Assembly (NCBI RefSeq): GCF_038624605.1
Contig: NZ_CP152020.1
Location: forward strand, 1,077,312 to 1,109,311
Source: Psychrobacillus sp. FSL K6-4046
GTDB lineage: Bacteria > Bacillota > Bacilli > Bacillales_A > Planococcaceae
Direction: 5' to 3'
DNA length: 32,000 nt
This document shows, one piece after another, positions 2,499 through 31,189 of the stretch. Position 1 is the stretch's first letter; every line of letters begins with the position of its first letter. The position numbers and the translations under genes were made by a program. The notes beneath the pieces are model-generated. The model was not told where the DNA came from. It ran no database searches and saw only the letters and a program-made list of their open reading frames with translations.

Positions 2499-2972
2499 CT
2501 ACTTAAACATTTCAAAATGTTTTGCCACCCATTTTGTATTATTTTCTACAATATATTTTTCCGCATTGATCAAGCGGTGTACGAGTTCTTTTTTTGATAA
2601 CTTCATGTATTTTCTATGTGTGTTTTCCAAATTACGATTAGGTTTAATCTTCCGAAAATCAATTTCATCAGTAGTATCATTATAATTAGTTTTTTTGTTT
2701 TGACCACTAATTTTTTGCTTATACGTTTTGCTGTTTAGCTTGTAATATTCATACAACTGTTCGTTTGTCCTTATAGTATTGGAATGAATTCCTTTCCCTT
2801 CGGGATCAATTTCTTTTGATGTTTTGGCTACGTTTGAGTATGTTACTGATTCTCCATTCTTAATCAATAAATTAATCGCTTGTTTACCTAATTCAACCGA
2901 ACGGTTACTACGTTTTTGATGACTTTCTCTTAGCCACGACCTATCATTTGTCGAATTTAATGTGTGGCTCAT
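2499..2972 (-). CDS. small basic TnpC/DUF6262-like protein of a Tn554-family module
   Basis: The ORF track gives 2499..3008. ATG at 2972-2970 is preceded by GGGAGGAAG, so I prefer it as the start. It overlaps the end of the upstream recombinase gene. The HTH-like segment KQAINLLIKNGESVTYSNVAKTSKE and the position as third gene after two recombinases match the Tn554 tnpA-tnpB-tnpC order. Confidence 0.6.
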   Translation of the reverse strand: MSHTLNSTNDRSWLRESHQKRSNRSVELGKQAINLLIKNGESVTYSNVAKTSKEIDPEGKGIHSNTIRTNEQLYEYYKLNSKTYKQKISGQNKKTNYNDTTDEIDFRKIKPNRNLENTHRKYMKLSKKELVHRLINAEKYIVENNTKWVAKHFEMFK

Positions 2973-5088
2973 ACTTTTCTTCCTCCCTATATTTCTCAAT
3001 CTGTTCAATCTCTTTTAATTCATTTCGTGCGTGCTTACGCATTGCCTTTGCTTTCTTGACTTCTACTGGCAAGTTCATTGCAGTGAAACGTTTCTCCATG
3101 TCTTTTGATAGTTCTATTACTTCTTCTAATTCATGCTTCTTTTCAGGTTGTGGAATTTTGGCTTGGCAACCTAAACATTGCATTTTAGTAGGACATACAA
3201 AAGCTGTAACACACGTTCCACCTAAAACATTATTAAATACTCCAACTTGTTGTTTGTATTCTTCCAGTTCTTTTTCAAGTTCTTCAGGACTTCGCAAAAC
3301 AGCTTCATCTAAGTCAACATAATCCGAGATAACATCGTGCAAATCACTGACGGATTGAGCAACTTGGCTTGGTGTAGGTTCTGAATAATATTCTGTAACT
3401 CCTGTATCACGTTGATGCAGAATCTTAGCTACAATGTCGATATGTAGCCCTTGTCGCTGAACAGCTTCGGTAGCGAACGCGTGGCGTAATAAATGTGTTT
3501 TAATTACAACTGGCTTGCCTTCCTGTGTTTCGAAGTTTAGTCCATGAAGTAAAAAGCGTAGACATGTCCAAACAGGAAATTTATTTAAAGATAGTTTATG
3601 ATACTGGAAGAAATATGGTTTAGGTTCAGGAAATAGGTGGCTTCGTTCACCACGATATTTAACACTTGGTATTTTTTTAGTACCATAATGCTCCTTCAAA
3701 AGTTTTGCCACCAATTGAATTAACTTCATCGTTTGTTCACTAATATAAAAAGGTTCTACTTCATCTCGACCTTTTGGAATAGCGTAAAAGGAAAACTTTA
3801 ATTTGTCCTCAACCTTAACTTTTCGGATACACTCTCTTGTATTACTTATTTGCAATAATTCATTTAGCCTTGCACCGGTTGTAGTAAAAATGTCTGCAGC
3901 TAATAAACCGAAGGTTGCAGCTGCATATAGTGGTTCTACTGTAAACAAAGTTCCTTCCGCTTTATGTTTGTTTCTAGAAACAAAGGTGCTTGATGTAAGT
4001 ATCCCTTTATGTTGTGACTCAAAAGGTTTAGAATTCTCACTTAAACTTTCCTTTCCATATCCCCATGAATATAACAACTTACGTTTTTGTTTTATTTCTT
4101 CATCACTGGCATTTTGATTCCAACTTCCAATAACCCCTTTTTCAAAGAGTTCCAGAAACCAAAGACCTTCGGCTTCCTCGTCATCAATTGCTCGTTCAGC
4201 TTTTATAAACTCTACGAAGCATTGATTGTTTTCCTCTAAATAAGCACCTGTACGTTTATACGCTGATTTTAACGACGAAGCAGGGAACTGGTCTTGGTGA
4301 TTCAAAACAAACGAAGACTTGTCCCACAGGCGAAAATAAAAGCGTTCTCCCACCCGTTCCGGTTCGTCATAGTGAAAATCTAAGGGAAGTTCACAATTTG
4401 TGGTTTTAACCTGTTCACATGCCTTTAAATAGGCTTGACGTAGTCTATTTAATTGATTCCAACGAAAATGTCCTTCTGCTCGGATTTGTGGAAGCAGAGG
4501 AACGATGGCATCTGTTTCACTCTTTCGAGTGTTTTTAGCCTGCTCCTTAGATGATTTTGTAAAAGAGAAATCACTTGAATCGTAAGATGGCATATGAAAT
4601 AAGTATTGATCAAAATATGATTGTTGGTCACTGTTTAATTTTGATGTTATCCATTTCTTTGTAAAATAGGAAACTGACCTATACCGTGATAAAAAACTTG
4701 CTCTCATATCATCCGAATGTTCTTGAAAGATTGAGCCTTTTAGGTATTGATACATATCTGTTTCAACATTAAACTCTGCCATGTTGCTTAATTGAAATGC
4801 TTCGAACAAGTTCCTTAACCTTGCATTAACTGTATATATTAAATCTGTTATTGTTTTAACATCTGAATTTCTGTCAACATATACAAAAATCGAAAGCAAA
4901 AGATGATTCTTCCAAGGTTTGTCTATAACTAGGTTCGTATAATATTTTAAGTTTGTTTCATGAACTTTATCTAAAAAAAATGCTCCTCTTGTATCATGCA
5001 AATAAAGAAGTTGTTCATCAACTCGCCCCATTAATTGCTCATAAAATGGTGATTGTGGCTTATCTGTTAATACAGTCAGTGTCATCAC
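2944..5088 (-). CDS. large tyrosine recombinase (Tn554 TnpB-like)
   Basis: 714 aa. Box I: TTGARLNELLQI. Box II: HLLRHAFATEAV. A downstream tyrosine lies in GVTEYYSEP, and there is a Cys cluster CPTKMQCLGCQ. The start overlaps the upstream gene stop by 4 nt. Confidence 0.8.
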   Translation of the reverse strand: MMTLTVLTDKPQSPFYEQLMGRVDEQLLYLHDTRGAFFLDKVHETNLKYYTNLVIDKPWKNHLLLSIFVYVDRNSDVKTITDLIYTVNARLRNLFEAFQLSNMAEFNVETDMYQYLKGSIFQEHSDDMRASFLSRYRSVSYFTKKWITSKLNSDQQSYFDQYLFHMPSYDSSDFSFTKSSKEQAKNTRKSETDAIVPLLPQIRAEGHFRWNQLNRLRQAYLKACEQVKTTNCELPLDFHYDEPERVGERFYFRLWDKSSFVLNHQDQFPASSLKSAYKRTGAYLEENNQCFVEFIKAERAIDDEEAEGLWFLELFEKGVIGSWNQNASDEEIKQKRKLLYSWGYGKESLSENSKPFESQHKGILTSSTFVSRNKHKAEGTLFTVEPLYAAATFGLLAADIFTTTGARLNELLQISNTRECIRKVKVEDKLKFSFYAIPKGRDEVEPFYISEQTMKLIQLVAKLLKEHYGTKKIPSVKYRGERSHLFPEPKPYFFQYHKLSLNKFPVWTCLRFLLHGLNFETQEGKPVVIKTHLLRHAFATEAVQRQGLHIDIVAKILHQRDTGVTEYYSEPTPSQVAQSVSDLHDVISDYVDLDEAVLRSPEELEKELEEYKQQVGVFNNVLGGTCVTAFVCPTKMQCLGCQAKIPQPEKKHELEEVIELSKDMEKRFTAMNLPVEVKKAKAMRKHARNELKEIEQIEKYREEEKYEPHIKFDK

Positions 5089-6446
5089 TCCAATCCATCG
5101 AATAATTCTTGAATTTCGTCATCTACCTCAATCCCATCAAAGTTATTTTCTATGACTGTTAAGTTAGGTTTCTTTTTAAGCTTCTTTTTCTTTTGTTCCA
5201 AGTATTCTTGTTCTTGTTGAGCCATGCTCTCCAACATACCATCATGGGCTTTACGATGGCTTTCTTCGTCAAAGAAATGCTCGTAAACTTTAATAGTTTC
5301 TTCATCTTTCCACTTAATGTATTTAGTCAATTCATTCTTCTTTTGTTTGATCTCTGCTTCTGTGGTAGAAGTATTATAGATTTCACGTAATCTTGAAGTA
5401 ACAAACCAATGTCTTGTTTTATGTGGATTTAGTTTAATCTCACATTCTTTCATCGCCTTATCCCAATGGTAATACCATGACTCATAAGTTAATGGAGAGC
5501 CGAGTTCAGTAAGGAATATCGTTGCTTCATCTGGCAAGGTATTAAAATTACGTTGTAATTCATCAAATTTCTTTCGTTCTGTATTGATATATTGCATAAG
5601 TAACTTGACCGTATCTTTGCTAAATCGAAGGAATTTCACCCTTTTTCCATGACTCCCCTTATTGAATGTATTGGCTTCCTGAAATGATTTTCGAGAACGA
5701 TAGTCCCCAATCGTTAATTCAATAACTTCGGATACTCTTGCACCTGTTTCAAAAAGTAGACGAGCAATTACTATTTCTCTTAATGACCAATTTACTTTTT
5801 TTCCTGCTTGATAAACCTGATAAGGAAGGTGAATATCGCCAATGATTTCAGGTTGCCATTCTTCATTGATTAGTTTGAAATAAGAATCCGTTAATCTTCT
5901 ATGCGTTGTGGTATCCTCTGTTCCTGCTTCTGATGGCATCCGAGGTTTATCTTTTCTGACACCTTCGGTATTACTCTTATAGTCATTTAAAATTGCATAT
6001 GAATCTATTAGAGGATTTGAATACCTATATTGCTTTAAATGAATTAGAGATCTATAGAATGACTTTAAAGCTGAAAGAAAACGATTAACTGTATTCGGAC
6101 TCTTATTTGTTCGATTTACAAATCGAAAAGTATCTTTTTCTCTTACTTTACAAGCCATTTCATCCATAAGGTAATCTTCAACAGCCATTCGTATAATGTC
6201 AGGTGAATCATCCCATTTAACTTGTTTTCCTTGAAAATTACTAAATTGATCCAACCATGTGAAAAAAGGAAGAAGGCATTGAACATACGAAAGGGCAGAA
6301 CTTTTACTAATTCTCCCAATACAATCATGATAATGCTCCGTTAATGGCAGAAAAGGTTGGTTTTGTCTATCAAAAACTAATAATTCAAATCGACTTTTAA
6401 CACTATCAGGACAATAATCATACCAATATTTAAACATAGACAACAC
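5085..6446 (-). CDS. tyrosine recombinase (Tn554 TnpA-like)
   Basis: 453 aa. ETGARVSEVIELTIGDY (catalytic Arg box), HKTRHWFVTSRL (HxxR box) and ETIKVYEHF (candidate catalytic Tyr). AGGTG lies 7 nt upstream of the ATG. Confidence 0.8.
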   Translation of the reverse strand: MLSMFKYWYDYCPDSVKSRFELLVFDRQNQPFLPLTEHYHDCIGRISKSSALSYVQCLLPFFTWLDQFSNFQGKQVKWDDSPDIIRMAVEDYLMDEMACKVREKDTFRFVNRTNKSPNTVNRFLSALKSFYRSLIHLKQYRYSNPLIDSYAILNDYKSNTEGVRKDKPRMPSEAGTEDTTTHRRLTDSYFKLINEEWQPEIIGDIHLPYQVYQAGKKVNWSLREIVIARLLFETGARVSEVIELTIGDYRSRKSFQEANTFNKGSHGKRVKFLRFSKDTVKLLMQYINTERKKFDELQRNFNTLPDEATIFLTELGSPLTYESWYYHWDKAMKECEIKLNPHKTRHWFVTSRLREIYNTSTTEAEIKQKKNELTKYIKWKDEETIKVYEHFFDEESHRKAHDGMLESMAQQEQEYLEQKKKKLKKKPNLTVIENNFDGIEVDDEIQELFDGLE

Positions 6447-6453
6447 CTACTTA

Positions 6454-7005
6454 TTATTCTCGTTCTTCAAGCCAGTTATAAAAAGGAACAACCCTTGATT
6501 GTTGATTTTGCACAATAGTTTTTTGTTCATTATCTTGTTGAGTTAGCTCATAAAATCGCTTACTTTGTTCTTTTGGCAGTTTAATAGGCATTGAAGTAGG
6601 GCTCCAATTTTCTCGAATGGCTTTACGGATAAACCCGTCAGGGTTTTTAACCTTGGTAACTGATTGTTGCATAATCAGCAGTATATCTAAGGTTCTTTTT
6701 ATTCCTACAACAGAAAGGATAGATAGAATTTCATCTGTAGGTGAATTAAGAGTAACAGCCTGATACGCTAATTTAACTAATTCTGTTTCATTAGAAACAC
6801 TTTTCTTATTATCATTTTTTTTTTCAGGAATATTGATAGCGATGACATGATTTAGTTGCAATAAATCTAATTCAATAATCCTCCAACCTTCTTTGTCACT
6901 ATTCCTGTATGAATTAGGTAGCTTACCTGATCGAATCCAACGTTTAATGGTTTCTTCATGTTTTCCTAAGAGATCAGCTACCTCTTTAACAGTGTACTCT
7001 TTCAA
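6454..7005 (-). CDS. excisionase/MerR-like HTH DNA-binding protein, first gene of the recombinase operon
   Basis: 183 aa. The N-terminus YTVKEVADLLGKHEETIKRWIRSGKLP is a classic HTH_17-type motif. It ends 7 nt before the TnpA-like start. Confidence 0.7.
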   Translation of the reverse strand: MKEYTVKEVADLLGKHEETIKRWIRSGKLPNSYRNSDKEGWRIIELDLLQLNHVIAINIPEKKNDNKKSVSNETELVKLAYQAVTLNSPTDEILSILSVVGIKRTLDILLIMQQSVTKVKNPDGFIRKAIRENWSPTSMPIKLPKEQSKRFYELTQQDNEQKTIVQNQQSRVVPFYNWLEERE

Positions 7006-8446: not shown

Positions 8447-9268
8447 TTGATGTGTGATGTGCTAAAAGTGCCAAGAAGTACGTATTACCAGTCGTTCCAT
8501 AAAGTAAAATCTTCGTATGCCATGGAAAACGAAGCGGTTTTAGCACGCATACAAACTATACATGCGGAGAGTAAAGGTCGCTATGGTGCACCAAAAATTC
8601 ATTATCTGTTAACCCAAGAAAAGGTCGATTTCAGCTTAAATCGAGTGCAGCGAATCATGAAAAAGGCTGGAATTCGATCAACGATCGTGAAGAAGTACCG
8701 ACCAACTTCCTCCACTGGACAAGTGGTGGAACGTGAAAACCTGTTAGAACAAAATTTTGAAACGACGACCATTAATGAAAAATGGGTTGCAGATATTACG
8801 TATATTCATACATTAAGAGACGGCTGGTGTTATTTAGCTTCCGTCCTAGATTTACACACGAAAAAAATTGTTGGCTATTCCTTTTCCAAATCGATGACAA
8901 CAGAACTTGTTTTACAAGCTTTAGCGAACGCAATCGATGTTCAACAACCAGAAGAAGGACTAATCTTACATACCGATTTAGGCAGCCAGTATACTAGTGA
9001 AGACTTTGAAAAAGCAGTGAAAGAAGCAAAATTCAAACAATCTTTCAGTCGTAAAGGATGCCCATATGACAATGCATGTATCGAGTCTTTTCATGCGATT
9101 TTGAAAAAAGAAGAGGTATATCAATCTAGTTATATCAATTTTGAAACAGCCCGATTGACCCTATTCCATTATATCGAGTCGTGGTACAACCGAAAACGAA
9201 TTCATGGAGCTATTAACTATCTAACACCTCAACAATTAGAGGACTTATGCCGAAAAGAAGCGGTTTGA
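8447..9268 (+). CDS. IS3-family transposase OrfB (DDE/rve integrase core), expressed as an OrfAB fusion
   Basis: 273 aa. Candidate DDE residues lie in WVADITYI, LHTDLGSQYTS and CIESFHAILKKE. The frame is -1 relative to orfA. Confidence 0.9.
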   Translation: MMCDVLKVPRSTYYQSFHKVKSSYAMENEAVLARIQTIHAESKGRYGAPKIHYLLTQEKVDFSLNRVQRIMKKAGIRSTIVKKYRPTSSTGQVVERENLLEQNFETTTINEKWVADITYIHTLRDGWCYLASVLDLHTKKIVGYSFSKSMTTELVLQALANAIDVQQPEEGLILHTDLGSQYTSEDFEKAVKEAKFKQSFSRKGCPYDNACIESFHAILKKEEVYQSSYINFETARLTLFHYIESWYNRKRIHGAINYLTPQQLEDLCRKEAV

Positions 9269-19690: not shown

Positions 19691-19780
19691 CTTTGCAACG
19701 AGGGGCAATTCGTATGTTGAATTGCTTCGTTTCAACTTACGAGATAAAGAAAATCTAAACAATTGAAAAGAGGGGAAAAG

Positions 19781-20416
19781 ATGGAAGATGTTTTTTCAAA
19801 TAACATTGACATTAACAAAAATGCTTATATAAATTGGCGGATTGAAAAACATAATCCTATTAAAAATATGTTGACCATAGCTGATGGTTTTATGGAATCT
19901 TCTATTATATTAGCAGAACAGGCTTTAGAAGATAATAGGGATAAAAAAGCAGATATCATAATCTACCCTATCCTTTTTAATGCTAACCATGCAATTGAAT
20001 TGTATTTGAAGGCAATTGGATGGACAGTTAATATACTTCTCCATAATGATAAAAAAGTAGAAGGCGGACATGATATTCAGCAAATCCTTAATGTAGTTAA
20101 ATCAAGAGTTAATGAATTTGAGATGGATAAGGATCGAAAGAAAACTTTCAAAGAGTTGATAAGCAATCTGGAGAATTATATTAAGGAACTATTTTTAAAA
20201 ATTGAAACAGAAGATGGTGGAAAAAAGAAAGGTAACATGGATTTTTCCAGATATCCTTTTGATACGAAGTATGTATCGCATTTCTATATAGAAACATTTG
20301 ATAATGTTGTCGTAGATTTAGAGAACTTTGTTGAAAAATTTAAAGAAATAGGACAGAACTTGAACCAAATTGCGTTCCATTATCTATATGATTTTTTACT
20401 TGCTGAAAATGAATGA
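19781..20416 (+). CDS. HEPN-like all-alpha protein inserted between pglX and pglZ (211 aa)
   Basis: ATG 19781 lies 5 nt after GAGGGG; the ORF track starts at TTG 19763. The motif series LFNANHAIELYLKAIG ... GGHDIQQIL ... FSRYPFD matches my recollection of the classical HEPN pattern (AvEkaLKA ... tHdL..L ... RYp). I find no canonical Rx4-6H. It is visibly more AT-rich than the flanking BREX genes. Confidence 0.45.
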   Translation: MEDVFSNNIDINKNAYINWRIEKHNPIKNMLTIADGFMESSIILAEQALEDNRDKKADIIIYPILFNANHAIELYLKAIGWTVNILLHNDKKVEGGHDIQQILNVVKSRVNEFEMDKDRKKTFKELISNLENYIKELFLKIETEDGGKKKGNMDFSRYPFDTKYVSHFYIETFDNVVVDLENFVEKFKEIGQNLNQIAFHYLYDFLLAENE

Positions 20417-23031: not shown

Positions 23032-25089
23032 ATGGAAGAGAGAGTGGAAGAAACGTTGACGCTTGATCTTGATAAAAAGCTGAATGAAGCATTTGCAGGT
23101 CGTGTCGTCCGTAAAGACTTGACGAAACTTATCAAAGAAGGGGCAAACGTGCCTATATATGTGCTGGAATACTTGCTTGGCATGTATGCTGCCACAGATG
23201 ATGAAGAAAGTATTCAACAAGGTGTAGACCGTGTTAAAAAGATTCTCTCTGATAATTTTGTTCGTCCAGATGAAGCAGAGAAAATTAAATCACGTATTCG
23301 TGAGCTTGGTCAATATTCAATTATTGATAAGGTGACAGTGGCCTTGAATCCCAAGATTGACACTTATGAAGCAGAGTTTTCTAATCTTGGATTAAAAGGT
23401 GTTCCTATTTCCTCTAACTTAGTGAAAGAGTTCGATAAGCTCTTAGTTGGTGGTATTTGGTGCATGATCAAGATTGATTATTTTTATGATGAAGAAACAA
23501 AGGTAATGAATCCTTTTAGTGTCTGTAGTTTGCAACCAATTCAAATGCCGAATATGGATATGGAAGAGGTGTTTGAAGGGCGAAAACAGTTCACTAAAAA
23601 AGAGTGGATTGATGTTTTAATTCGTTCAACTGGAATGGAACCAACACAATTAGAGGAACGTGTGAAATGGCATCTGCTGTTAAGACTCGTGCCTTTAGTG
23701 GAAAATAACTACAACATGTGTGAACTCGGCCCTCGTGGTACAGGTAAATCGCATGTTTACAAAGAAATTAGTCCGAATTCTATATTAGTTTCAGGTGGAC
23801 AATCTACCGTAGCTAATCTCTTTTATAACATGACTACCCGTAAGGTAGGATTGGTAGGTATGTGGGATACCGTGGCTTTTGATGAAGTGGCAGGGATTCA
23901 CTTTAAAGATAAAGACGGAATCCAAATTATGAAGGATTATATGGCATCGGGAAGTTTCGCTCGTGGCAAAGAAGAGAAAAATGCTTCGGCTTCTATGGTG
24001 TTTGTCGGAAATATTAATCAAAGTGTAGATGTATTATTGAAAACTTCACATCTATTCGCCCCCTTCCCACCAGAAATGGCAAATGACACTGCTTTCTTTG
24101 ATCGTATGCACTATTATATGCCTGGTTGGGAAATTCCTAAGATGCGACCTGATTTATTTACTGATAAGTATGGATTTATTGTTGATTATCTTGCTGAATT
24201 TTTCCGTGAAATGCGTAAACGACAGTATGCAGATTCAATAGACCGTTATTTCAAGCTTGGAAACAACTTGAATCAACGAGATACAGTCGCAGTTCGAAAG
24301 ACTGTTTCTGGTATGGTAAAACTCATTTATCCGAATGGTGAATTCACGAAAGAAGATGTAGAGGAAATCTTACAATATGCTCTTGAAGGTCGTCGTCGTG
24401 TTAAGGAACAGCTTAAGAAAATCGGTGGCATGGAGTTTTATGATGTGATGTTTTCGTATATCGATAAAGAGTCGTTGAACGAAGAATATGTATCTGTTCC
24501 AGAACAAGGTGGAGGAAAGCTCATACCAGAAGGAATGGGTAAACCAGGCCATGTGTACGTGGTAGGACACGGTCAGACGGGTATGATAGGTGTTTACAAG
24601 CTAGAGAACCAAGTTGTAAGTGGAACTGGGAAGTTTGATAGGTCCGGCTTAGGATCCTCGAGAGACGCTAAAGAAAGTCTTGATACTGCTTTCAGGTATT
24701 TCACTGCCAATAGCAAAAGTATTAGTAATTTAATCAGCACAAAAACTAAAGATTACCTAATGCACATAAGTGACCTGCAGGGGATTGGTATTACAAGTGA
24801 ACTTGCTGTAGCTGAACTAATTGGTTTATGCTCTGGAGCACTAGAGAAACCGGTCCAAGAGAGTATGGTTATTATCGGAAACATGACTGTTGGCGGAACG
24901 ATTGCAAAGGTTGAAGAATTTGCGAATACATTACAAGTATGTGTAGATGCTGGTGCTAAAAAAGTGTTGATACCAGCAGCATCTGTAATGGATTTGCAGA
25001 CGGTTCCACCAGACTTACTAGTAAAGGTACAACCAGTGTTTTATGCAGATCCTATAGATGCAGTGTTTAAAGCGTTAGGAGTTAATTAG
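23032..25089 (+). CDS. brxL: BREX Lon-like protease/ATPase BrxL
   Basis: 685 aa. Walker A GPRGTGKS at 23728-23751. C-terminal Lon protease-like domain (GLCSGAL ... GAKKVLIP). RBS GAGGGGGTG. Confidence 0.9.
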   Translation: MEERVEETLTLDLDKKLNEAFAGRVVRKDLTKLIKEGANVPIYVLEYLLGMYAATDDEESIQQGVDRVKKILSDNFVRPDEAEKIKSRIRELGQYSIIDKVTVALNPKIDTYEAEFSNLGLKGVPISSNLVKEFDKLLVGGIWCMIKIDYFYDEETKVMNPFSVCSLQPIQMPNMDMEEVFEGRKQFTKKEWIDVLIRSTGMEPTQLEERVKWHLLLRLVPLVENNYNMCELGPRGTGKSHVYKEISPNSILVSGGQSTVANLFYNMTTRKVGLVGMWDTVAFDEVAGIHFKDKDGIQIMKDYMASGSFARGKEEKNASASMVFVGNINQSVDVLLKTSHLFAPFPPEMANDTAFFDRMHYYMPGWEIPKMRPDLFTDKYGFIVDYLAEFFREMRKRQYADSIDRYFKLGNNLNQRDTVAVRKTVSGMVKLIYPNGEFTKEDVEEILQYALEGRRRVKEQLKKIGGMEFYDVMFSYIDKESLNEEYVSVPEQGGGKLIPEGMGKPGHVYVVGHGQTGMIGVYKLENQVVSGTGKFDRSGLGSSRDAKESLDTAFRYFTANSKSISNLISTKTKDYLMHISDLQGIGITSELAVAELIGLCSGALEKPVQESMVIIGNMTVGGTIAKVEEFANTLQVCVDAGAKKVLIPAASVMDLQTVPPDLLVKVQPVFYADPIDAVFKALGVN

Positions 25090-25119: not shown

Positions 25120-25294
25120 ATACAGAAGATGTTTGATTGGATAGAGGAGTCTGAAGGTTATAGGTGGGGTTAGCGATGTGTAAAGTAATGGTGATTACTT
25201 TTTTTAAAGAGATAGATATGATGCTACTACCGCACCTCAAATCACCTAAATTTTGCCGGTAGCATGTATATAAATAGAAGTAAATCTAATAAAG

Positions 25295-25336
25295 AAAAAG
25301 CCTACCAGCAACTATAAATATCGGAAGGCTTTTTCT
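25295..25336. terminator. possible bidirectional terminator downstream of the TIR gene
   Basis: AAAAAGCCT ... AGGCTTTTT with a ~22-nt loop and A/T runs on both sides. It lies ~55 nt past the TIR stop on the minus strand. The large loop lowers confidence. Confidence 0.4.
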
Positions 25337-25388
25337 GTTCAATTAAAATATAGTAGTTTATTAACAAAATTGAATAGAAAAATAGAGC

Positions 25389-26072
25389 TCAAATGGTGAC
25401 AAGTTCTGTAAGTTTGGTCACGACGTCTTCTATCGGTTCTTCGGCAGTACTCAGACCACTTCGTGAACCAAGCAAAGGACTGACTTCGCGTAGAGCTTCA
25501 TACGTAGTGCCGTGCACAATCGGAATGAGACGCTCGCCAGAGAGGAGTACCGAAAGTTCTTTGTCGGCAATACCCTCTGTTTGGAGGCGACTTAGCAACG
25601 CAGGGGTCACCAGCACAAGCCCAACTCGCGATTTCGCCAACCCCTTGTCTATTGCACGAAGTAGCGGCACGCCGAGGCCAACGTCTTTTTCACTGAACCA
25701 GACGGAGACACCTTGTGCCTCAAGCAGGTCGTGCAGATCCTTGGCGACTCCCTTCCGATCGTCCCAAGCATGGCAGAGGAAGACGTCCCTAAGGTCAAGA
25801 TCATCTCGCTCAGCCAGCTTTTCGACGCTGTTACGGATTGGTGTGAGTGCCCTAACTTCTTGAATCGTGTACACCACAGACGAACCTGCTCCCGACCAAC
25901 GTGGTTTTGCACTGCTGCCGGACCCTCCGCTACTACTTAAGCTGCCTCCACTTCTATAAGATGGGGGTGAGTACGACCTATAGTTGCTACTGTATCTCCC
26001 ACCGCACGCTGGGCAGTTGGCTCGTGCACTGGCTGATTGATGCCCCCTTACTGGAGCCGTACATCTAGCCAT
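25389..26072 (-). CDS. stand-alone TIR-domain protein with a Cys-containing, Ser/Gly-rich N-terminal extension
   Basis: 227 aa. TIR-like core: DVFLCHAWDDRKGVAKDLHDLLEAQGVSVWFSEKDVGLGVPLLRAIDKGLAKSRVGLVLVTPALL. N-terminus: MARCTAPVRGHQSASARANCPACGG, followed by an S/G/Y-rich low-complexity stretch. RBS GGGGGT lies 7 nt upstream. Three 60-nt lines I counted give 52%, 60% and 52% GC, against 40% for a brxL line. Confidence 0.8.
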   Translation of the reverse strand: MARCTAPVRGHQSASARANCPACGGRYSSNYRSYSPPSYRSGGSLSSSGGSGSSAKPRWSGAGSSVVYTIQEVRALTPIRNSVEKLAERDDLDLRDVFLCHAWDDRKGVAKDLHDLLEAQGVSVWFSEKDVGLGVPLLRAIDKGLAKSRVGLVLVTPALLSRLQTEGIADKELSVLLSGERLIPIVHGTTYEALREVSPLLGSRSGLSTAEEPIEDVVTKLTELVTI

Positions 26073-26169
26073 GCAAATTACCCCCTAACTTAATGAGTAA
26101 TGACCATTTTATTAAATTCATTTCAGTTGCCTCCCAGGTGTTCTGTTTATTTTTTTGTTCCCTTCTCAT
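26065..26169 (-). CDS. unannotated 34-codon sORF overlapping the TIR start codon
   Basis: Below the ORF-track size cut-off. AAAGGAGGT, 6 nt, then ATG (26169-26167). Manual translation: MRREQKNKQNTWEATEMNLIKWSLLIKLGGNLHG*. Its TAG (26067-26065) lies inside ATGGCTAG, an 8-nt overlap with the TIR ORF. Confidence 0.45.
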   Translation of the reverse strand: MRREQKNKQNTWEATEMNLIKWSLLIKLGGNLHG

Positions 26170-26377
26170 CGTATGACCTCCTTTATTAATTGACTATCTT
26201 CTCAAAGGAACTGAATTTTTTTCATTAAAAGAAAATAGCAATCTATCTAGGATATACGGTTAGTATGAAATAATAGTTTCATCTTTCTGTAAATTATTTC
26301 TCGGTTCTTGACGAAGAAATATATTAGTGAGGATATGTTCTTTACTAATCTCTTTATACAATTCTATCCCGGAAGTT

Positions 26378-26403
26378 GAATAAGAATAAGAATAAGAATA
26401 AGA
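26378..26403. repeat. hexanucleotide tandem repeat (GAATAA) x ~4.3
   Basis: GAATAAGAATAAGAATAAGAATAAGA in the divergent intergenic region between the TIR gene and the 649-aa gene. Confidence 0.8.
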
Positions 26404-26577
26404 GCTGCCTGAGCAATCCAACGATTTTTAACTAAAGAACCCGTTTACTTTAACTGCGACTATTCACAACATTTAAAAGAAACAAATAACGACCGGAATT
26501 CATTAAGTAATAGCTATCCGCATAGGGTGGTTATTTAACTTATTTTTATTTATAATATAAATGATAAATTATTTTGG

Positions 26578-26646: not shown

Positions 26647-28596
26647 ATGGCTATTCACGATCTTCAATTACGGCAGTTAATGTACGTCCTTTTGAATGAG
26701 AAAGATGGTGTTTTTATGGAAAAATACAAAAATAAGGAGTTCTTGATTCAAAAGTTAAAGGTGGAAAAGTTATCCTATAACCAATTAGCCGTCCAATTGG
26801 GTTGCGGTGTGTCAACTCTTAGATATTGGATAAAGAAGCACGGAATTGAACTAAGAGGAAATTTACAAAAAGAGTTATTAAAGAACAAAAGAAAAATCAC
26901 GGAAATGTACATTCAGCAAAACAAGACATTGAAGGAGATTGGTGAGGCATTTAATTGCTCACAACAAACGGTCCTGAATTTTATTAATGCTGAGGGGATC
27001 TATAAGGACATCAACCGTTGGCAGAGATGGGAGGAAGAAGAAGTCAGGGATTTGATCCGTTTAAGAAATGAAGGCAAAAAACTTGGCGAAATCTATCAAT
27101 TCTTTAAAGGTAAATACAATGAGAACAAAATCTCACACAAATTAAATTCACTGGGATTTTTCAGGGAGGAAGTATGGAGTGAAGATGAAGAACGAATGCT
27201 AAAAGAGTGCGACGGGCTAAGTATGAATGAAATCCTCCCATTATTCCCTCATAAGGATTATAGTCAAATTCTTTATAAAGCCGGTGCATTAAAGGTAGAT
27301 ATCAGATTGATGAACAGACCCTGGTCAGAGAATGAAAGACAGGTTTTGATAAACAATCCAGACAAAACACTCGACGAATTGGCTGCAATGCTGGACAGAA
27401 GCAGTAACGCTATCTGGACGAAAATCAAAGAGGAGAAATTGACATTTAAGAAGAAGGTCGTGATGGCAAGTGATATAATAGACAATAAAATCACATGCCC
27501 TAAATGCGGTGAGTTAAAGGAATATACAGAAGAAAACTTCAACTTGAACATAAACTACTACACTTGCATTAATTGCAGAAACAAAATCACCAACATTACA
27601 AAATATAGGTTAAAATACGGAATTACGCTAGATTTCGAAAAGATGTTTAATACCTTTACAGCCATCGAATGGTATCATATGTATTTGGATGGTCGTATTA
27701 GTAAATTGCCTCAAGAAATATACGACTCACATGTGAAGAGAAATGAAATCATTGTTCACATCATAAAGGAATTGCTAAAAAAGGAAAGCAGAGAAGATAT
27801 CATTGAATTGAATTACAATGACATCCGAAGGTACAAAATCACATATTTTCTTCTTGGAAATAATATATGCGACATTTTAAACGATGTATTTTCAGAATAC
27901 AACTTCAAACATTGGGAATTCCGGTTGGTTCCAGGGGATTTTTGGAGTGAGAAACAACACGCAGATGAATATCTTCGATGGTTTGTTGAAACCAGGTTGA
28001 ATATCAACGAATTAAATATCAACAGGGATATCCCTAAAATTTTTACAGTTTCCTCATTAAGAATAATTGGAGAACATCGTTTGAACCGTTGTTTGCATGA
28101 ATATGATCACTATGGGAGCTACTATGAATGGTTGTCCTATATATTTCCACAGTGGGGTCTTCAACCTGAAAATTTCAAATTAAGTATCTCCTTCGATGGC
28201 GTTGTGTTTGATTCCAATGAAGAATGTTTGATTTATGAATATTTAAAAAGAGAATGTGGGATTTCTATTACTTATGTAGGAAACCAACGATTTTATAAAT
28301 TTTGGAATGAAGAACATAATGAGTCGTATATTCCGGACTTTGTAATCAGTAAAATCAATAATATAAAGCTAGATAAGCCTCTCATAATGGAATATTATGG
28401 ATTGTACAATCCTAATTTAACCGATTCTTTCTTCCAAGATTATTGCGAGAAAACCTGTAGGAAAAATGCCTTTTACAAACAGAACGGGGATATTTACTTC
28501 CTAGATATTTATCCCTATGACTTGGTATCAACTTTCAAAGGAGTCTCCGAAAAACTGAATGCTTTTAACAAACAGGAAATAAATAGGGAAAGATGA
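26647..28596 (+). CDS. multi-domain DNA-binding protein: 2 HTH modules, 3 Myb/SANT-like repeats, zinc ribbon, C-terminal PD-(D/E)xK-like nuclease fold
   Basis: 649 aa from ATG 26647 (no SD) or 626 aa from ATG 26716 (MEKYKNKEF...). HTH modules: SYNQLAVQLGCGVSTLRYWIKKHGI and NKTLKEIGEAFNCSQQTVLNFINAEGI. W-x-x-E-E repeats: WEEEEVRDLIRLR, WSEDEERMLKE, WSENERQVLIN. Zinc ribbon: CPKCG-x22-CINC. C-terminus: FDSNEECLIYEYL ... YIPDFVI ... LIMEYYG (an E / PDF / ExxG arrangement, as in DUF559/TnsA-N-type folds). Confidence 0.7.
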   Translation: MAIHDLQLRQLMYVLLNEKDGVFMEKYKNKEFLIQKLKVEKLSYNQLAVQLGCGVSTLRYWIKKHGIELRGNLQKELLKNKRKITEMYIQQNKTLKEIGEAFNCSQQTVLNFINAEGIYKDINRWQRWEEEEVRDLIRLRNEGKKLGEIYQFFKGKYNENKISHKLNSLGFFREEVWSEDEERMLKECDGLSMNEILPLFPHKDYSQILYKAGALKVDIRLMNRPWSENERQVLINNPDKTLDELAAMLDRSSNAIWTKIKEEKLTFKKKVVMASDIIDNKITCPKCGELKEYTEENFNLNINYYTCINCRNKITNITKYRLKYGITLDFEKMFNTFTAIEWYHMYLDGRISKLPQEIYDSHVKRNEIIVHIIKELLKKESREDIIELNYNDIRRYKITYFLLGNNICDILNDVFSEYNFKHWEFRLVPGDFWSEKQHADEYLRWFVETRLNINELNINRDIPKIFTVSSLRIIGEHRLNRCLHEYDHYGSYYEWLSYIFPQWGLQPENFKLSISFDGVVFDSNEECLIYEYLKRECGISITYVGNQRFYKFWNEEHNESYIPDFVISKINNIKLDKPLIMEYYGLYNPNLTDSFFQDYCEKTCRKNAFYKQNGDIYFLDIYPYDLVSTFKGVSEKLNAFNKQEINRER

Positions 28597-29214: not shown

Positions 29215-30131
29215 GGGGTCTTCCGCCCAGGCACACTAGATAAATGGGGCTTAACGTGGGAAGTAATGAAAGAGGCTAATCCAAAGCTCATCTTACTTCG
29301 TACCTCAGGCTTTGGACAAACCGGACCATACGCCAAAAAAGCAGGATTTGGTACTGTGGTAGAGGCAATGAGTGGCTTCACCTCTATTAATGGGGAGAAG
29401 GGGGGCAACCCTACCTTACCGGCACGGTACTGGCAGACGGTGTTTCCAGTATATTTGGCGCACTTTCCATCATGATTGCGCTATATGGGCAAATAAAGAA
29501 TGGTATATCAGAAGGGCAGCGGATTGATATCAATCATTACGAGCTATTAATGCTCTTACTGGAGCCCCAAATAACCGCATACGATCAATTAAACAAAATT
29601 CCTGTCCCTATCGGAAATAGCAGCCTACAAACAGCTCCACGAAATGCCTATCTAACAAAGGATAATACATGGATCGCCCTACCAGGCTCCTCACAATCTA
29701 TCACCGAAAATATATTCAAAGCAATTGGACGAGAGGACCTAATTACAGATCCAAAGTTCTGTACCAATGAACAACGAGTTCAGTATGTAGCAGAATTAGA
29801 TGGTATTATAGGAGACTGGGTTCGAAAGCACACATTACAAGAGGTAGTTGCACGCTTTGACGAATGTGGTGCTATCGCAGGCCCAATGTATAACATTGCC
29901 CAGCTATTTGAAGACCCTCACTATCAGCATAGAGAATCCTTCATACATGTTCCTGATAAAGACTTTGGAGAAATGCGAATACCAAACGTCGTAGCGAAGT
30001 TTTCTCTTACACCTGGGGAAGTACGCACATTGGGACCCGATAAGGGAGAGCATACGATTCAGATATTGAAGGAGCAGGTGGGGCTGTCTGATGAGAAGAT
30101 AGAGCAGTTGAGGGAGTTGGGTGTGATTTAA
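29215..30131 (+). pseudogene. family III CoA-transferase (CaiB/BaiF-like), 5'-truncated and frameshifted
   Basis: Homology starts abruptly after a stop at 29212-14: GVFRPGTLDKWGLTWEVMKEANPKLILLRTSGFGQTGPYAKKAGFGTVVEAMSGF... About 75-90 N-terminal residues are missing. The frame breaks near 29419-29421: ...GGNPTLP continues in the +1 frame as GTVLADGVSSIFGALSIMIALYG, joining ORFs 29266..29475 and 29472..30131. Confidence 0.8.
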
Positions 30132-30220
30132 TAAAATATTTATTCTAAATATTTTACTGGTTTGAGTATATTCTATAGAATTTAAAGATCCGTCTAAACT
30201 TTAATCTCCTTTTATACGGG

Positions 30221-30265
30221 AAAAACTTCCTATTGAGTACAAACGTACTCAATAGGAAGTTTTTA
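30221..30265. terminator. bidirectional rho-independent terminator
   Basis: A perfect 17-bp stem, AACTTCCTATTGAGTAC (30224-30240) with GTACTCAATAGGAAGTT (30245-30261), and a 4-nt loop. It is flanked by A5 on the left and T4 on the right. Confidence 0.85.
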
Positions 30266-31189
30266 AACTAACATCATAAGACTGCTCTATAAAGTGTTTC
30301 GCCTTCTCTAGGTCTTCATCTTTATTAATCCTTATCTCTAAATCTCAAGTACCGTAATGCCCAATATTAGATACATCACGTGTAAAGCCTGGTTCTAGAG
30401 ATATAGTGGAAGGGTCTACCTTTAGATACAGTAGTATGGTATTGGAATTTAGATGGACTTCAACGCAGGCAAAGTTTTTAATTCGTTTGAAGGCGAAATA
30501 GTTTTTTAACGTCTTCATTTGTACGTCGTCGCCTAAGGCAATCATAGAAGCTTTTAAATTCTCGAAGCGATCTGTGAGTGTTTCATTTGCTTGTGCTACG
30601 TAATCTGAAACAGTTTTGGATGTTTTATTATTAGTTTTGTGTGTAATACCAGCAGGTTCATCATCAATATAGACAGTCTGCACTGTTGTTGCATTCATAG
30701 GTCTAACATTAAGAAACCATAAATATAGTGTTTGTATTGATAAAGCTCGATGTTCCGATGATCTGTTGAACGGCATGTTCATCAAACTTTGTAAAATTAC
30801 CAGCTATACATAATAGGCGTGGGCTGCTCCAATCGATATTTTCTGCTATTGAAGGACCGAATCTTCTTAAGGTCATTAATTCAAATTCTGCCTTAAGGTC
30901 CAGTAGCCAATCTAAATAATAAAGACCTTGGTTAATCACTTTTTCATTCCTAGCTCGTTTATATTCGATAATGACAGGTGAGTTATTTTCATCTAAACCA
31001 AGTGTGTGTGTCGATTCTTCCACCGTGTCGTTTACCTGTAGAATACTCGGAAGCCAAAAACTTTATACCGAGAAATGCTTCTAGATGCTTCTCAATTAAG
31101 TGCTGTAGTGATTTTTCTAAAGCAACCGAATGACCACGCAACTCCCACACATCTTCTCCATTTATTTTAAAAAATTTAATGTCACCCAT
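30249..31189 (-). pseudogene. NucS/DUF91-like endonuclease fused to a DUF5655-like C-domain, decayed
   Basis: The three track ORFs (30989..31189, 30709..31023, 30345..30785) are pieces of one gene: ...GGRID|THTLGLDENNSPVIIEYKR... The first break is at a (GT)5 tract, 31002-31011; one extra AC unit on the coding strand would restore the frame. Around 30720-30780 the plausible sequence RNIELYQYKHYIYGFLMLDL lies in a third frame, so there are at least 3 frameshifts. An in-frame TGA at 30345-47 (GHYGT*DLEIRINKDEDLEKAKHFIEQSYDV) looks like a GGA to TGA change. Confidence 0.7.

Follow-up and report, generated by a model that had tools for sequence, protein, structure and literature searches.

A solitary TIR gene acquired horizontally next to a BREX-1 operon in Psychrobacillus, and the widespread protein family to which it belongs

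Introduction

At the 3' end of a BREX operon in Psychrobacillus sp. FSL K6-4046 there is a short gene of conspicuously high G+C content (GC), and the question raised by this locus is where such a gene came from and what its product might do on its own. The gene encodes a TIR-domain protein and occupies positions 25389 to 26072 of a 32,000-nucleotide stretch of contig NZ_CP152020.1 (positions 1,077,312 to 1,109,311), which in its entirety we refer to as the window. Stand-alone TIR proteins form a large class that was set aside by the most recent systematic survey of TIR immunity in bacteria: this census of TIR signaling left out stand-alone TIRs as well as TIRs judged to deplete NAD+, and treats the former as likely NAD+-depleting effectors (bioRxiv 10.64898/2025.12.03.692087). 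A literature search by architecture, by accession and for "standalone TIR" found no description of the family to which this gene belongs.

Here, we report that the gene was acquired horizontally as a unit of approximately 0.9 kb that carries its own ribosome-binding region and terminator. It is a new member of a family that is already present in databases, where it is labeled ThsB by PADLOC. What is distinctive is that the family is solitary and that its members have a predicted knuckle-linker-TIR architecture with IxxxE in place of the WxxxE motif. The reading that we favor, with a probability of roughly 0.55, is that the protein is foreign and functional, and is a self-sufficient, single-gene TIR enzyme that cleaves NAD+ (NADase) as a defense effector, in the manner of SpbK.

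Base composition and transfer of the TIR gene

The gene and the elements transferred with it are as follows, ORF standing for open reading frame and sORF for small open reading frame.

25389..26072, minus strand: stand-alone TIR gene, ATG start, 227 codons and a stop codon, GC 0.539 against a background of 0.35
25249..26174, minus strand: unit of about 0.92 kb common to other Bacillaceae copies (blastn), consisting of the ORF and AT-rich 5' and 3' flanks
25293..25336, minus strand: terminator-like hairpin (AGAAAAAGCCTACC / GGAAGGCTTTTTCT), inverted repeat I8, 14 nt, 93% complementary
26065..26121, minus strand: upstream 18-codon sORF (MNLIKWSLLIKLGGNLHG), with its own Shine-Dalgarno sequence GGGAGG at 26130-26135

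The original prediction, made from the sequence letters, described a sharp GC anomaly confined to this ORF, and sliding profiles of GC and codon adaptation bear this out. The GC content of the ORF (0.61, 0.51 and 0.49 at the first, second and third codon positions, respectively) compares with 0.392 for brxL, 0.343 for the neighboring 649-aa gene and 0.352 for the window as a whole, and lies 6.3 standard deviations above the mean of all 684-bp windows outside the ORF (mean 0.35, standard deviation 0.03, maximum 0.447). In 60-bp bins the change is abrupt at both borders, GC rising from 0.20 to 0.45 at the 3' border and falling from 0.62 through 0.42 to 0.33 at the 5' border. The codon-adaptation index, for which the other genes of the window served as the reference, is 0.56 for the TIR ORF, the lowest value in the window, and 0.69-0.77 for all other genes.

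Part of this anomaly is a property of the protein. When the protein is re-encoded with host codon usage the expected GC is still 0.46, and therefore about 0.11 of the 0.19 excess is due to an amino-acid composition rich in Ser, Gly, Ala and Arg. An explanation in which the anomaly is nothing but a by-product of that composition, in a gene inherited vertically, can draw on this figure. However, the remaining 0.08 or so reflects non-host codon choice, near-identical copies of the gene are found in other genera, the BREX loci nearest to this one do not have it, and the same positive GC offset (+0.14 to +0.25) recurs in other low-GC hosts, the family having a GC content of mostly 0.55-0.68 irrespective of host, with a few low-GC copies. 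Codon choice, near-identical copies and absence from related BREX loci together refute a purely compositional anomaly without transfer, and we give that explanation practically no chance. The proposal of a recent acquisition from a high-GC donor thus stands as far as foreign origin is concerned, but not with a high-GC donor as the sole cause of the composition.

Foreign origin is likewise indicated by direct comparison. Copies in other genera, located in unrelated contexts, share 90-92% nucleotide identity with the gene, with a synonymous divergence (dS) of 0.14-0.19. Among the compared loci, which carry L-numbers as labels, L082 and L083 are 90.5% identical over 25253-26151 and L084 is 83.8% identical over 25249-26174, and none of the three resembles this window in context. 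The homologous segment includes approximately 135 bp on the 3' side, with the terminator hairpin, and 80-100 bp on the 5' side, with the Shine-Dalgarno sequence and the sORF, and these co-transferred flanks are 84-90% identical. Given that other Bacillaceae copies have the same flanks, the AT-rich signals arrived with the gene, and the earlier view of them as native-looking low-GC expression signals is incorrect. The hairpin downstream of the gene is kept in L082 and L084, and nucleotide homology to L001 and more distant loci ends within about 20 bp of the ORF borders. No convincing terminal repeats, no Rfam family and no consensus sigma-70 promoter were found around the TIR gene.

The stop codon of the sORF overlaps the TIR start codon (ATGGCTAG), and in this genome its frame reaches back to an ATG at 26169, giving 34 codons preceded by the Shine-Dalgarno sequence AAAGGAGG. 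At 18-19 codons the sORF is kept in L082 and L084 with an in-frame 3-bp indel, and it is absent in L001 and farther loci. Its changes are mostly non-synonymous, so that its putative coding status is unproven. A second sample (L091, 4530-5309) is identical over 1311 nt except for four instead of five G residues at 26081-26085, in the Shine-Dalgarno sequence of the TIR gene. In this G4 allele the upstream frame of 34 codons continues in frame into the TIR ORF, for a product of 259 aa. The allele may be either a homopolymer assembly error or a genuine slippage variant.

Is the gene part of BREX? The BREX-1 operon is complete and its last gene, brxL, ends at 25089. The TIR gene is convergent with brxL and 299 bp away from it, with terminator-like hairpins in the gap; the description of a gene pressed against the 3' end of BREX is right about adjacency and wrong about the pressing. 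The association is incidental, since in the two closest other BREX loci (L092 and L093, BrxL identity 92%) unrelated genes follow brxL and the TIR gene is absent, which makes it cargo of a variable region and not a BREX component. Furthermore, BREX families are not among the top neighbor families of the TIR gene in scans of family neighborhoods. No empty-site comparator was found in the same species, as both samples with identical BrxL have the TIR gene. For this window, the GC island is a genuine horizontally acquired cassette and not a part of BREX.

The TIR domain and its predicted catalytic residue

The protein divides into the following segments.

25998..26072, minus strand: residues 1-25, putative zinc knuckle (MARCTAPVxGH...CPACGG), C4-x6-H11-x8-C20-x2-C23
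25905..25997, minus strand: residues 26-56, disordered low-complexity linker (S, G, Y, R); predicted local distance difference test score (pLDDT) <50 for residues 25-62
25788..25904, minus strand: residues 57-95, pre-TIR segment KPRWS...YT..EVRxLTPxR, conserved, predicted helix at 70-87
25392..25787, minus strand: residues 96-227, TIR domain of the bacterial Tcp/AbTir/PdTIR type, by sequence, profile and fold matches
25557..25559, minus strand: codon of E172 (catalytic-Glu homologue, ADKEL), with I168 at the Trp position of WxxxE

A TIR core had been recognized by eye, and every search agrees with it. Pfam TIR_2 matches residues 97-189 with an E value of 4.8e-14, and the domain finds Protein Data Bank (PDB) entries at E values of 1e-13 to 1e-15 by sequence and 1e-17 to 1e-18 by profile. 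An AlphaFold2 model built from a 43-sequence alignment (mean pLDDT 67.5) has a TIR core with pLDDT 70-89, a helix at 70-87, disorder at residues 25-62 and low confidence for the first 24 residues. A Foldseek search with this model returned the TIR fold, the nearest structures being BtpA/TcpB, PdTIR, BtTir and AbTir (E 1e-10 to 1e-7, target template modeling score 0.78-0.87), which are also the closest solved sequences at 26-30% identity; ThsB structures are absent from the top 50 matches. The PADLOC model PDLC00424 (ThsB1) matches the protein end to end, with residues 1-227 aligned to positions 1-234 of 234 at an E value of 5.5e-116. The entire architecture, N-terminus included, is therefore already in a defense database, and with thousands of full-length homologues besides, the statement that it fits no known TIR architecture, such as ThsB, does not hold.

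Features in common with the Tcp/AbTir type are a DxFISHA-like beta-A strand, the catalytic Glu, the LPIxH beta-D strand and the C-terminal SPxL...NT motifs. In a MAFFT alignment (A6) of eight family members with four solved bacterial TIRs (AbTir, BtTir, PdTIR and BtpA), the invariant E172 pairs with E208 of AbTir (WTNYEL) and with the matching Glu of the other three. For this placement the family must have four residues inserted ahead of the Glu and five deleted behind it, a difference from the Tcp/AbTir type, and pairwise HMMER alignments are ambiguous at this point. The original prediction was correct in assigning a catalytic-type Glu to the protein, but had chosen the wrong one: E128, in WFSEKD, sits at a column of A6 that varies between E, A and D. 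An E128Q mutant would consequently be the wrong experiment. Where the known relatives have WxxxE, this family has IxxxE, the motif [IV]A[DE]KE being present in 98.5% of 201 family sequences and Trp in none. AbTir residues at which mutation abolishes activity are changed here, the equivalents of S140, R151, D167 and W204 being C100, K111, S127 and I168, respectively. According to PMC11374754 (after Manik et al.), the majority of bacterial TIR NADases rely on the Glu, and the Trp of WxxxE is strongly conserved in producers of cyclic ADP-ribose (cADPR) isomers and less so in other TIRs.

The N-terminal half

In this family a putative zinc knuckle and a low-complexity linker over residues 1-62, followed by a single predicted helix (70-87) before the TIR domain, appear to stand in place of the N-terminal coiled-coil of Tcp/AbTir-type TIRs. 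The cysteine spacing given earlier as C-x16-CxxC is in fact C4-x15-C20-x2-C23, with an invariant His, H11, in addition. All four residues, C4, H11, C20 and C23, are invariant in alignments A1 and A5, and the knuckle pattern is present in 96% of the 201 family sequences. From this pattern the CHCC knuckle would be expected to bind zinc, although Pfam offers only sub-threshold zinc-ribbon or DUF6255 matches. Homology to DUF6255 was considered and rejected, as 9 of 43 members match and the best E value, 0.0036, falls short of the Pfam cut-off.

Across the family the linker is 25-50 aa long and consists of 35% Ser, 25% Gly, 13% Tyr and 10% Arg, with 0.5% acidic residues. It has a median of five Tyr, which stand in S/G/R contexts. 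The pre-TIR segment that follows contains the invariant residues W59, S64, Y68, L76, P78, R80 and E84, and aligns with the helix that precedes the TIR domain in BtpA (4lzp), a further likeness to that protein. Used as a query against 1.84 billion representatives, the knuckle-linker module gave 202 matches and is essentially private to this TIR family. Its occurrence on other effectors was rejected, since the few long matches are isolated cases of fusion, to TamB, to a beta-propeller or to part of a hydrolase, and are probably chimeras.

Distribution, selection and mobility of the family

More than 8000 proteins match the TIR protein over its full length at 68-93% identity, and at least 489 species-representative genomes have a copy. 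Hosts include Bacillota, Alpha-, Beta- and Gammaproteobacteria, Bacteroidota, Verrucomicrobiota, Acidobacteriota, Gemmatimonadota, Planctomycetota, Actinomycetota and Chloroflexota, placing the family among the most widespread and most conserved of stand-alone TIRs. Mean column identity across phyla is 74%, and protein identity between Bacillota, Acidobacteriota, Planctomycetota and Proteobacteria is 60-76%, with synonymous sites near saturation. For comparisons with close relatives, the ratio of non-synonymous to synonymous divergence (dN/dS) is 0.12-0.23. Between phyla it is 0.07-0.19, with dS at or close to saturation. By segment, non-synonymous divergence (pN) is 0.14 in the knuckle, 0.13 in the TIR domain and 0.30 in the linker, the most variable part. 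The gene is intact and is selectively maintained under strong purifying selection.

Full-length copies are found on 196 plasmid records, mainly conjugative plasmids of Klebsiella, Enterobacter, Citrobacter and Escherichia, with megaplasmids of the Bacillus cereus group and rhizobial plasmids as further carriers, and 182 of the 368 matching plasmid records are conjugative. Conjugative plasmids of the IncF type, from Klebsiella, Enterobacter and E. coli, are among the carriers. In E. coli, 110 of 5426 complete genomes (about 2%) have a copy, mostly within CP4-like integrative elements, and one E. coli copy has the accession WP_001389195.1. Copies are also present on 27 IMG/VR contigs, and no full-length copy was found in 50,697 phage records.

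On a Klebsiella IncF plasmid (L085, 5495-7705) and in the E. coli A10 chromosome (L121, 7491-9687), the TIR gene lies approximately 160 bp downstream of a transposase of the ISNCY family on the same strand, and in the closest Bacillaceae relatives the upstream neighbor is an IS110 transposase. Transposases of these two families are possible vehicles of the lone TIR gene.

Search for a partner gene

No SIR2, SLOG, Macro or cyclase gene is present among the ORFs of at least 100 aa in the window, in agreement with the original prediction that a Thoeris-type partner is missing there. In order to extend the search to the family, we clustered ORFs of at least 70 aa within 6 kb of the TIR gene in 81 loci, and scanned the 150 nearest and 143 second-nearest neighbors (293 in all, from about 76 loci) with PADLOC and Pfam. 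No neighbor family recurs in more than 10 of the 81 loci. The most frequent are RmrA-type HTH-M78 genes (6-10 loci), serine recombinases (8), DUF2188/PDC-S16 (5) and IetAS (3), and RmrA, where adjacent to the TIR gene, belongs to a two-gene operon of its own (L043). Other neighbors include AbiE, a CBASS cyclase, RT-TIR, MADS components, two ThsB_TIR genes and one DUF4917 gene, and RosmerTA antitoxin-like genes are also near the TIR gene at other loci. Among the 293 neighbors there is no SIR2, SLOG, Macro or other ThsA-type effector, and no Thoeris effector operon (ThsA SIR2-SLOG, Macro/TM, ThsC to ThsL) was found in the window or among the neighbors. The gaps that separate the TIR gene from its neighbors have medians of 168 bp on the upstream side and 205 bp on the downstream side. 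A conserved partner gene in these neighborhoods is therefore ruled out. The 649-aa gene beside the TIR gene was likewise ruled out as its effector, because its product has only two homologues among 5.8 billion proteins, and such a near-orphan cannot serve as a partner at the level of the family.

Proposed function and alternative explanations

In the reading that we favor, infection or stress would trigger the TIR protein alone to cleave NAD+, in an abortive-infection type of response, and the protein would not be the signal-generating half of a Thoeris operon. TIR NADases need self-association for activity, and here the knuckle and linker may control it; no other part of the protein presents itself as a candidate regulatory or sensor module. 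The extreme conservation of the knuckle argues for a universal cue and not a variable phage protein. Given Ile at the Trp position of WxxxE in all members, ADP-ribose or another non-cyclic product is likelier than 2' or 3' cADPR.

The known system with which we compare this protein is SpbK (YddK) of the B. subtilis element ICEBs1, an abortive-infection system made up of a single TIR NADase whose N-terminal domain docks on a phage portal, YonE of SPbeta, and so clusters the TIR domains (PMC12847820). Both are lone TIR genes on a mobile element in a Bacillales host, with a non-TIR region at the N-terminus, a TIR domain at the C-terminus and no partner effector, and a single-gene TIR without a partner on mobile elements and islands is what we find at the genomic level in the 81 loci, on plasmids and in islands. 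They differ in that the N-terminus here is a 25-residue putative CHCC knuckle with a disordered S/G/Y linker, and in breadth, SpbK being narrowly distributed and this family pan-bacterial with 60-90% identity. Neither the PDB sequence matches (E <=1) nor the top 50 folds included a chain of SpbK, the presence of an SpbK entry in the library being unconfirmed.

Several points weigh against this interpretation. Defense sensors normally diversify fast, and conservation of this degree across phyla is unusual in a protein that senses fast-evolving phage proteins. The restriction of the N-terminal module to this family means that there is no signature of a modular sensor-effector pair. Replacement of S140, D167 and W204, which are essential in AbTir, could have altered or abolished NADase activity, and the full-length match to the PADLOC ThsB model means that some members may come from Thoeris operons. 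In addition, the defense-island association is an apparent one, read from the neighbors of individual loci. Finally, we found no published experiment on any family member, and NADase activity, trigger and defense phenotype are inferred.

The PADLOC match lends itself to another explanation, namely that the protein is an orphan ThsB, whose infection-made nucleotide signal would activate a Thoeris-type effector encoded elsewhere in the genome or on a different mobile element. It shares with ThsB proteins of Thoeris types I-XI a TIR domain and a defense-island context, Thoeris TIRs expressed alone still make their signal on infection (bioRxiv 10.64898/2025.12.03.692087), and the few loci with neighboring ThsB-type TIR genes or a DUF4917 gene are in keeping with such a role. 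However, unlike a Thoeris ThsB, the gene has no adjacent effector here, nor one within two genes in about 76 other loci of most phyla; lone travel on plasmids and islands makes a general reliance on a resident effector unlikely; the Trp linked to cADPR isomers is absent in 201 of 201 members; and the nearest folds are AbTir, PdTIR and BtpA. On balance we consider a trans-acting ThsB improbable. We are just as doubtful of a role in the competition or maintenance of mobile elements, whether as a toxin-like NAD-consuming module or as a factor acting against incoming plasmids or conjugation. The abundance of the family on conjugative plasmids, its proximity to transposases and recombinases (IS110, ISNCY and serine recombinases) and its position next to antirestriction genes in CP4-like elements would all be expected of such a factor, and the very high cross-phylum conservation suggests a target that is universal and not phage-specific. 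Yet the neighborhoods contain no conserved antitoxin-like partner, the upstream sORF is confined to one Bacillaceae subclade, and defense systems are frequent neighbors.

BtpA/TcpB and TcpC were first described as non-enzymatic or host-directed TIR proteins, and a protein of this Tcp type would act through TIR-TIR interference. That BtpA/TcpB and PdTIR are the closest solved relatives, and that several catalytic-site residues of AbTir are replaced, would fit; but the family occurs in soil and environmental bacteria of most phyla, which have no eukaryotic host, its members keep the catalytic Glu without exception, and the neighborhoods examined showed neither a secretion signal nor a secretion-system context, so that we regard this possibility as very remote. 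A bolder proposal, which we hold to be unlikely though worth stating, is a one-protein, pan-bacterial immune module in which the knuckle would sense a universal cue, such as nucleic acid or a perturbed host process, and condensation or filament formation through the FUS-like linker would switch on the IxxxE TIR to cleave NAD+ to a non-cyclic product. Sensing of a universal cue would account for a knuckle as conserved as the enzyme across phyla. The analogy is with plant TIR-only proteins, which are likewise short TIR proteins without a dedicated sensor domain and whose activity needs concentration-driven higher-order assembly and substrate-induced condensation (PMC10972746). It is an analogy alone, as we found no homology beyond the TIR fold, and that the S/G/Y/R linker could promote higher-order assembly in a comparable manner is speculation. 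If true, bacteria would have their own version of the condensation-activated TIR-only proteins of plants.

Should the protein prove to be a self-sufficient NADase used in defense, as we favor, the questions of interest become how a TIR enzyme could be gated by a knuckle of 25 residues together with a disordered linker, what an active site lacking the Trp produces, and why a defense gene stays 60-75% identical between phyla. Given its breadth and conservation, and its natural occurrence in both E. coli and Bacillus, the family merits experimental work.

Neighboring genes in the window

From low to high coordinates the window contains a sigma factor, a minus-strand block, an IS3-type transposase, the BREX-1 operon, the TIR gene, the 649-aa gene and decayed fragments. 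Three of these features are specified here.

2944-7005, minus strand: possible integration-module block, composed of a 714-aa ORF (no family match), a tyrosine integrase (453 aa) and an HTH_17/mad1-like gene (183 aa)
8447-9268: IS3-type transposase, between the minus-strand integrase block and BREX
26647-28596, plus strand: 649-aa gene with several N-terminal helix-turn-helix (HTH) repeats, a Cys4 ribbon-like motif at about residues 280-312 and a faint DUF4046 match

The minus-strand block of 714-aa ORF, integrase and HTH gene may be the integration module of the island. Beyond the high-coordinate end of the window (L081, 1-4291) there is a Wadjet-like operon with DUF2397, DUF2398 and SbcC_Walker_B, so that the TIR gene is flanked by BREX-1 and Wadjet in a defense island. 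The HTH-rich 649-aa gene is divergent from the TIR gene, with 574 bp between them. One of the two homologues of its product is identical and comes from Psychrobacillus sp. FSL K6-4046, a strain in which BrxL also has a 100% identical match, and the other (34% identity) is encoded in an SPbeta-like prophage between YonG_N and YonD_N genes (L088, L089).

Within BREX-1, a 217-aa ORF without a family match (19763-20416, plus strand) lies between pglX and pglZ and has a GC content of 0.29, the minimum of the operon. L092 and L093 have unrelated ORFs at this site, of 442 aa and 287 aa, which gives it the appearance of a variable accessory position. The decayed genes at 29472-31023, on the stretch from the 649-aa gene to Wadjet, include a CoA-transferase III split into ORFs of 69 aa and 219 aa, and fragments of a DUF5655/PDC-S18 defense candidate, of which 146 aa correspond to positions 181-296 of a 365-position model. 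Lastly, the hexamer GAATAA occurs four times at 26378-26401, in the intergenic region between the TIR gene and the 649-aa gene. A 53-codon ORF on the minus strand (26260-26421), probably spurious, thereby acquires the run SYSYSYSYS.

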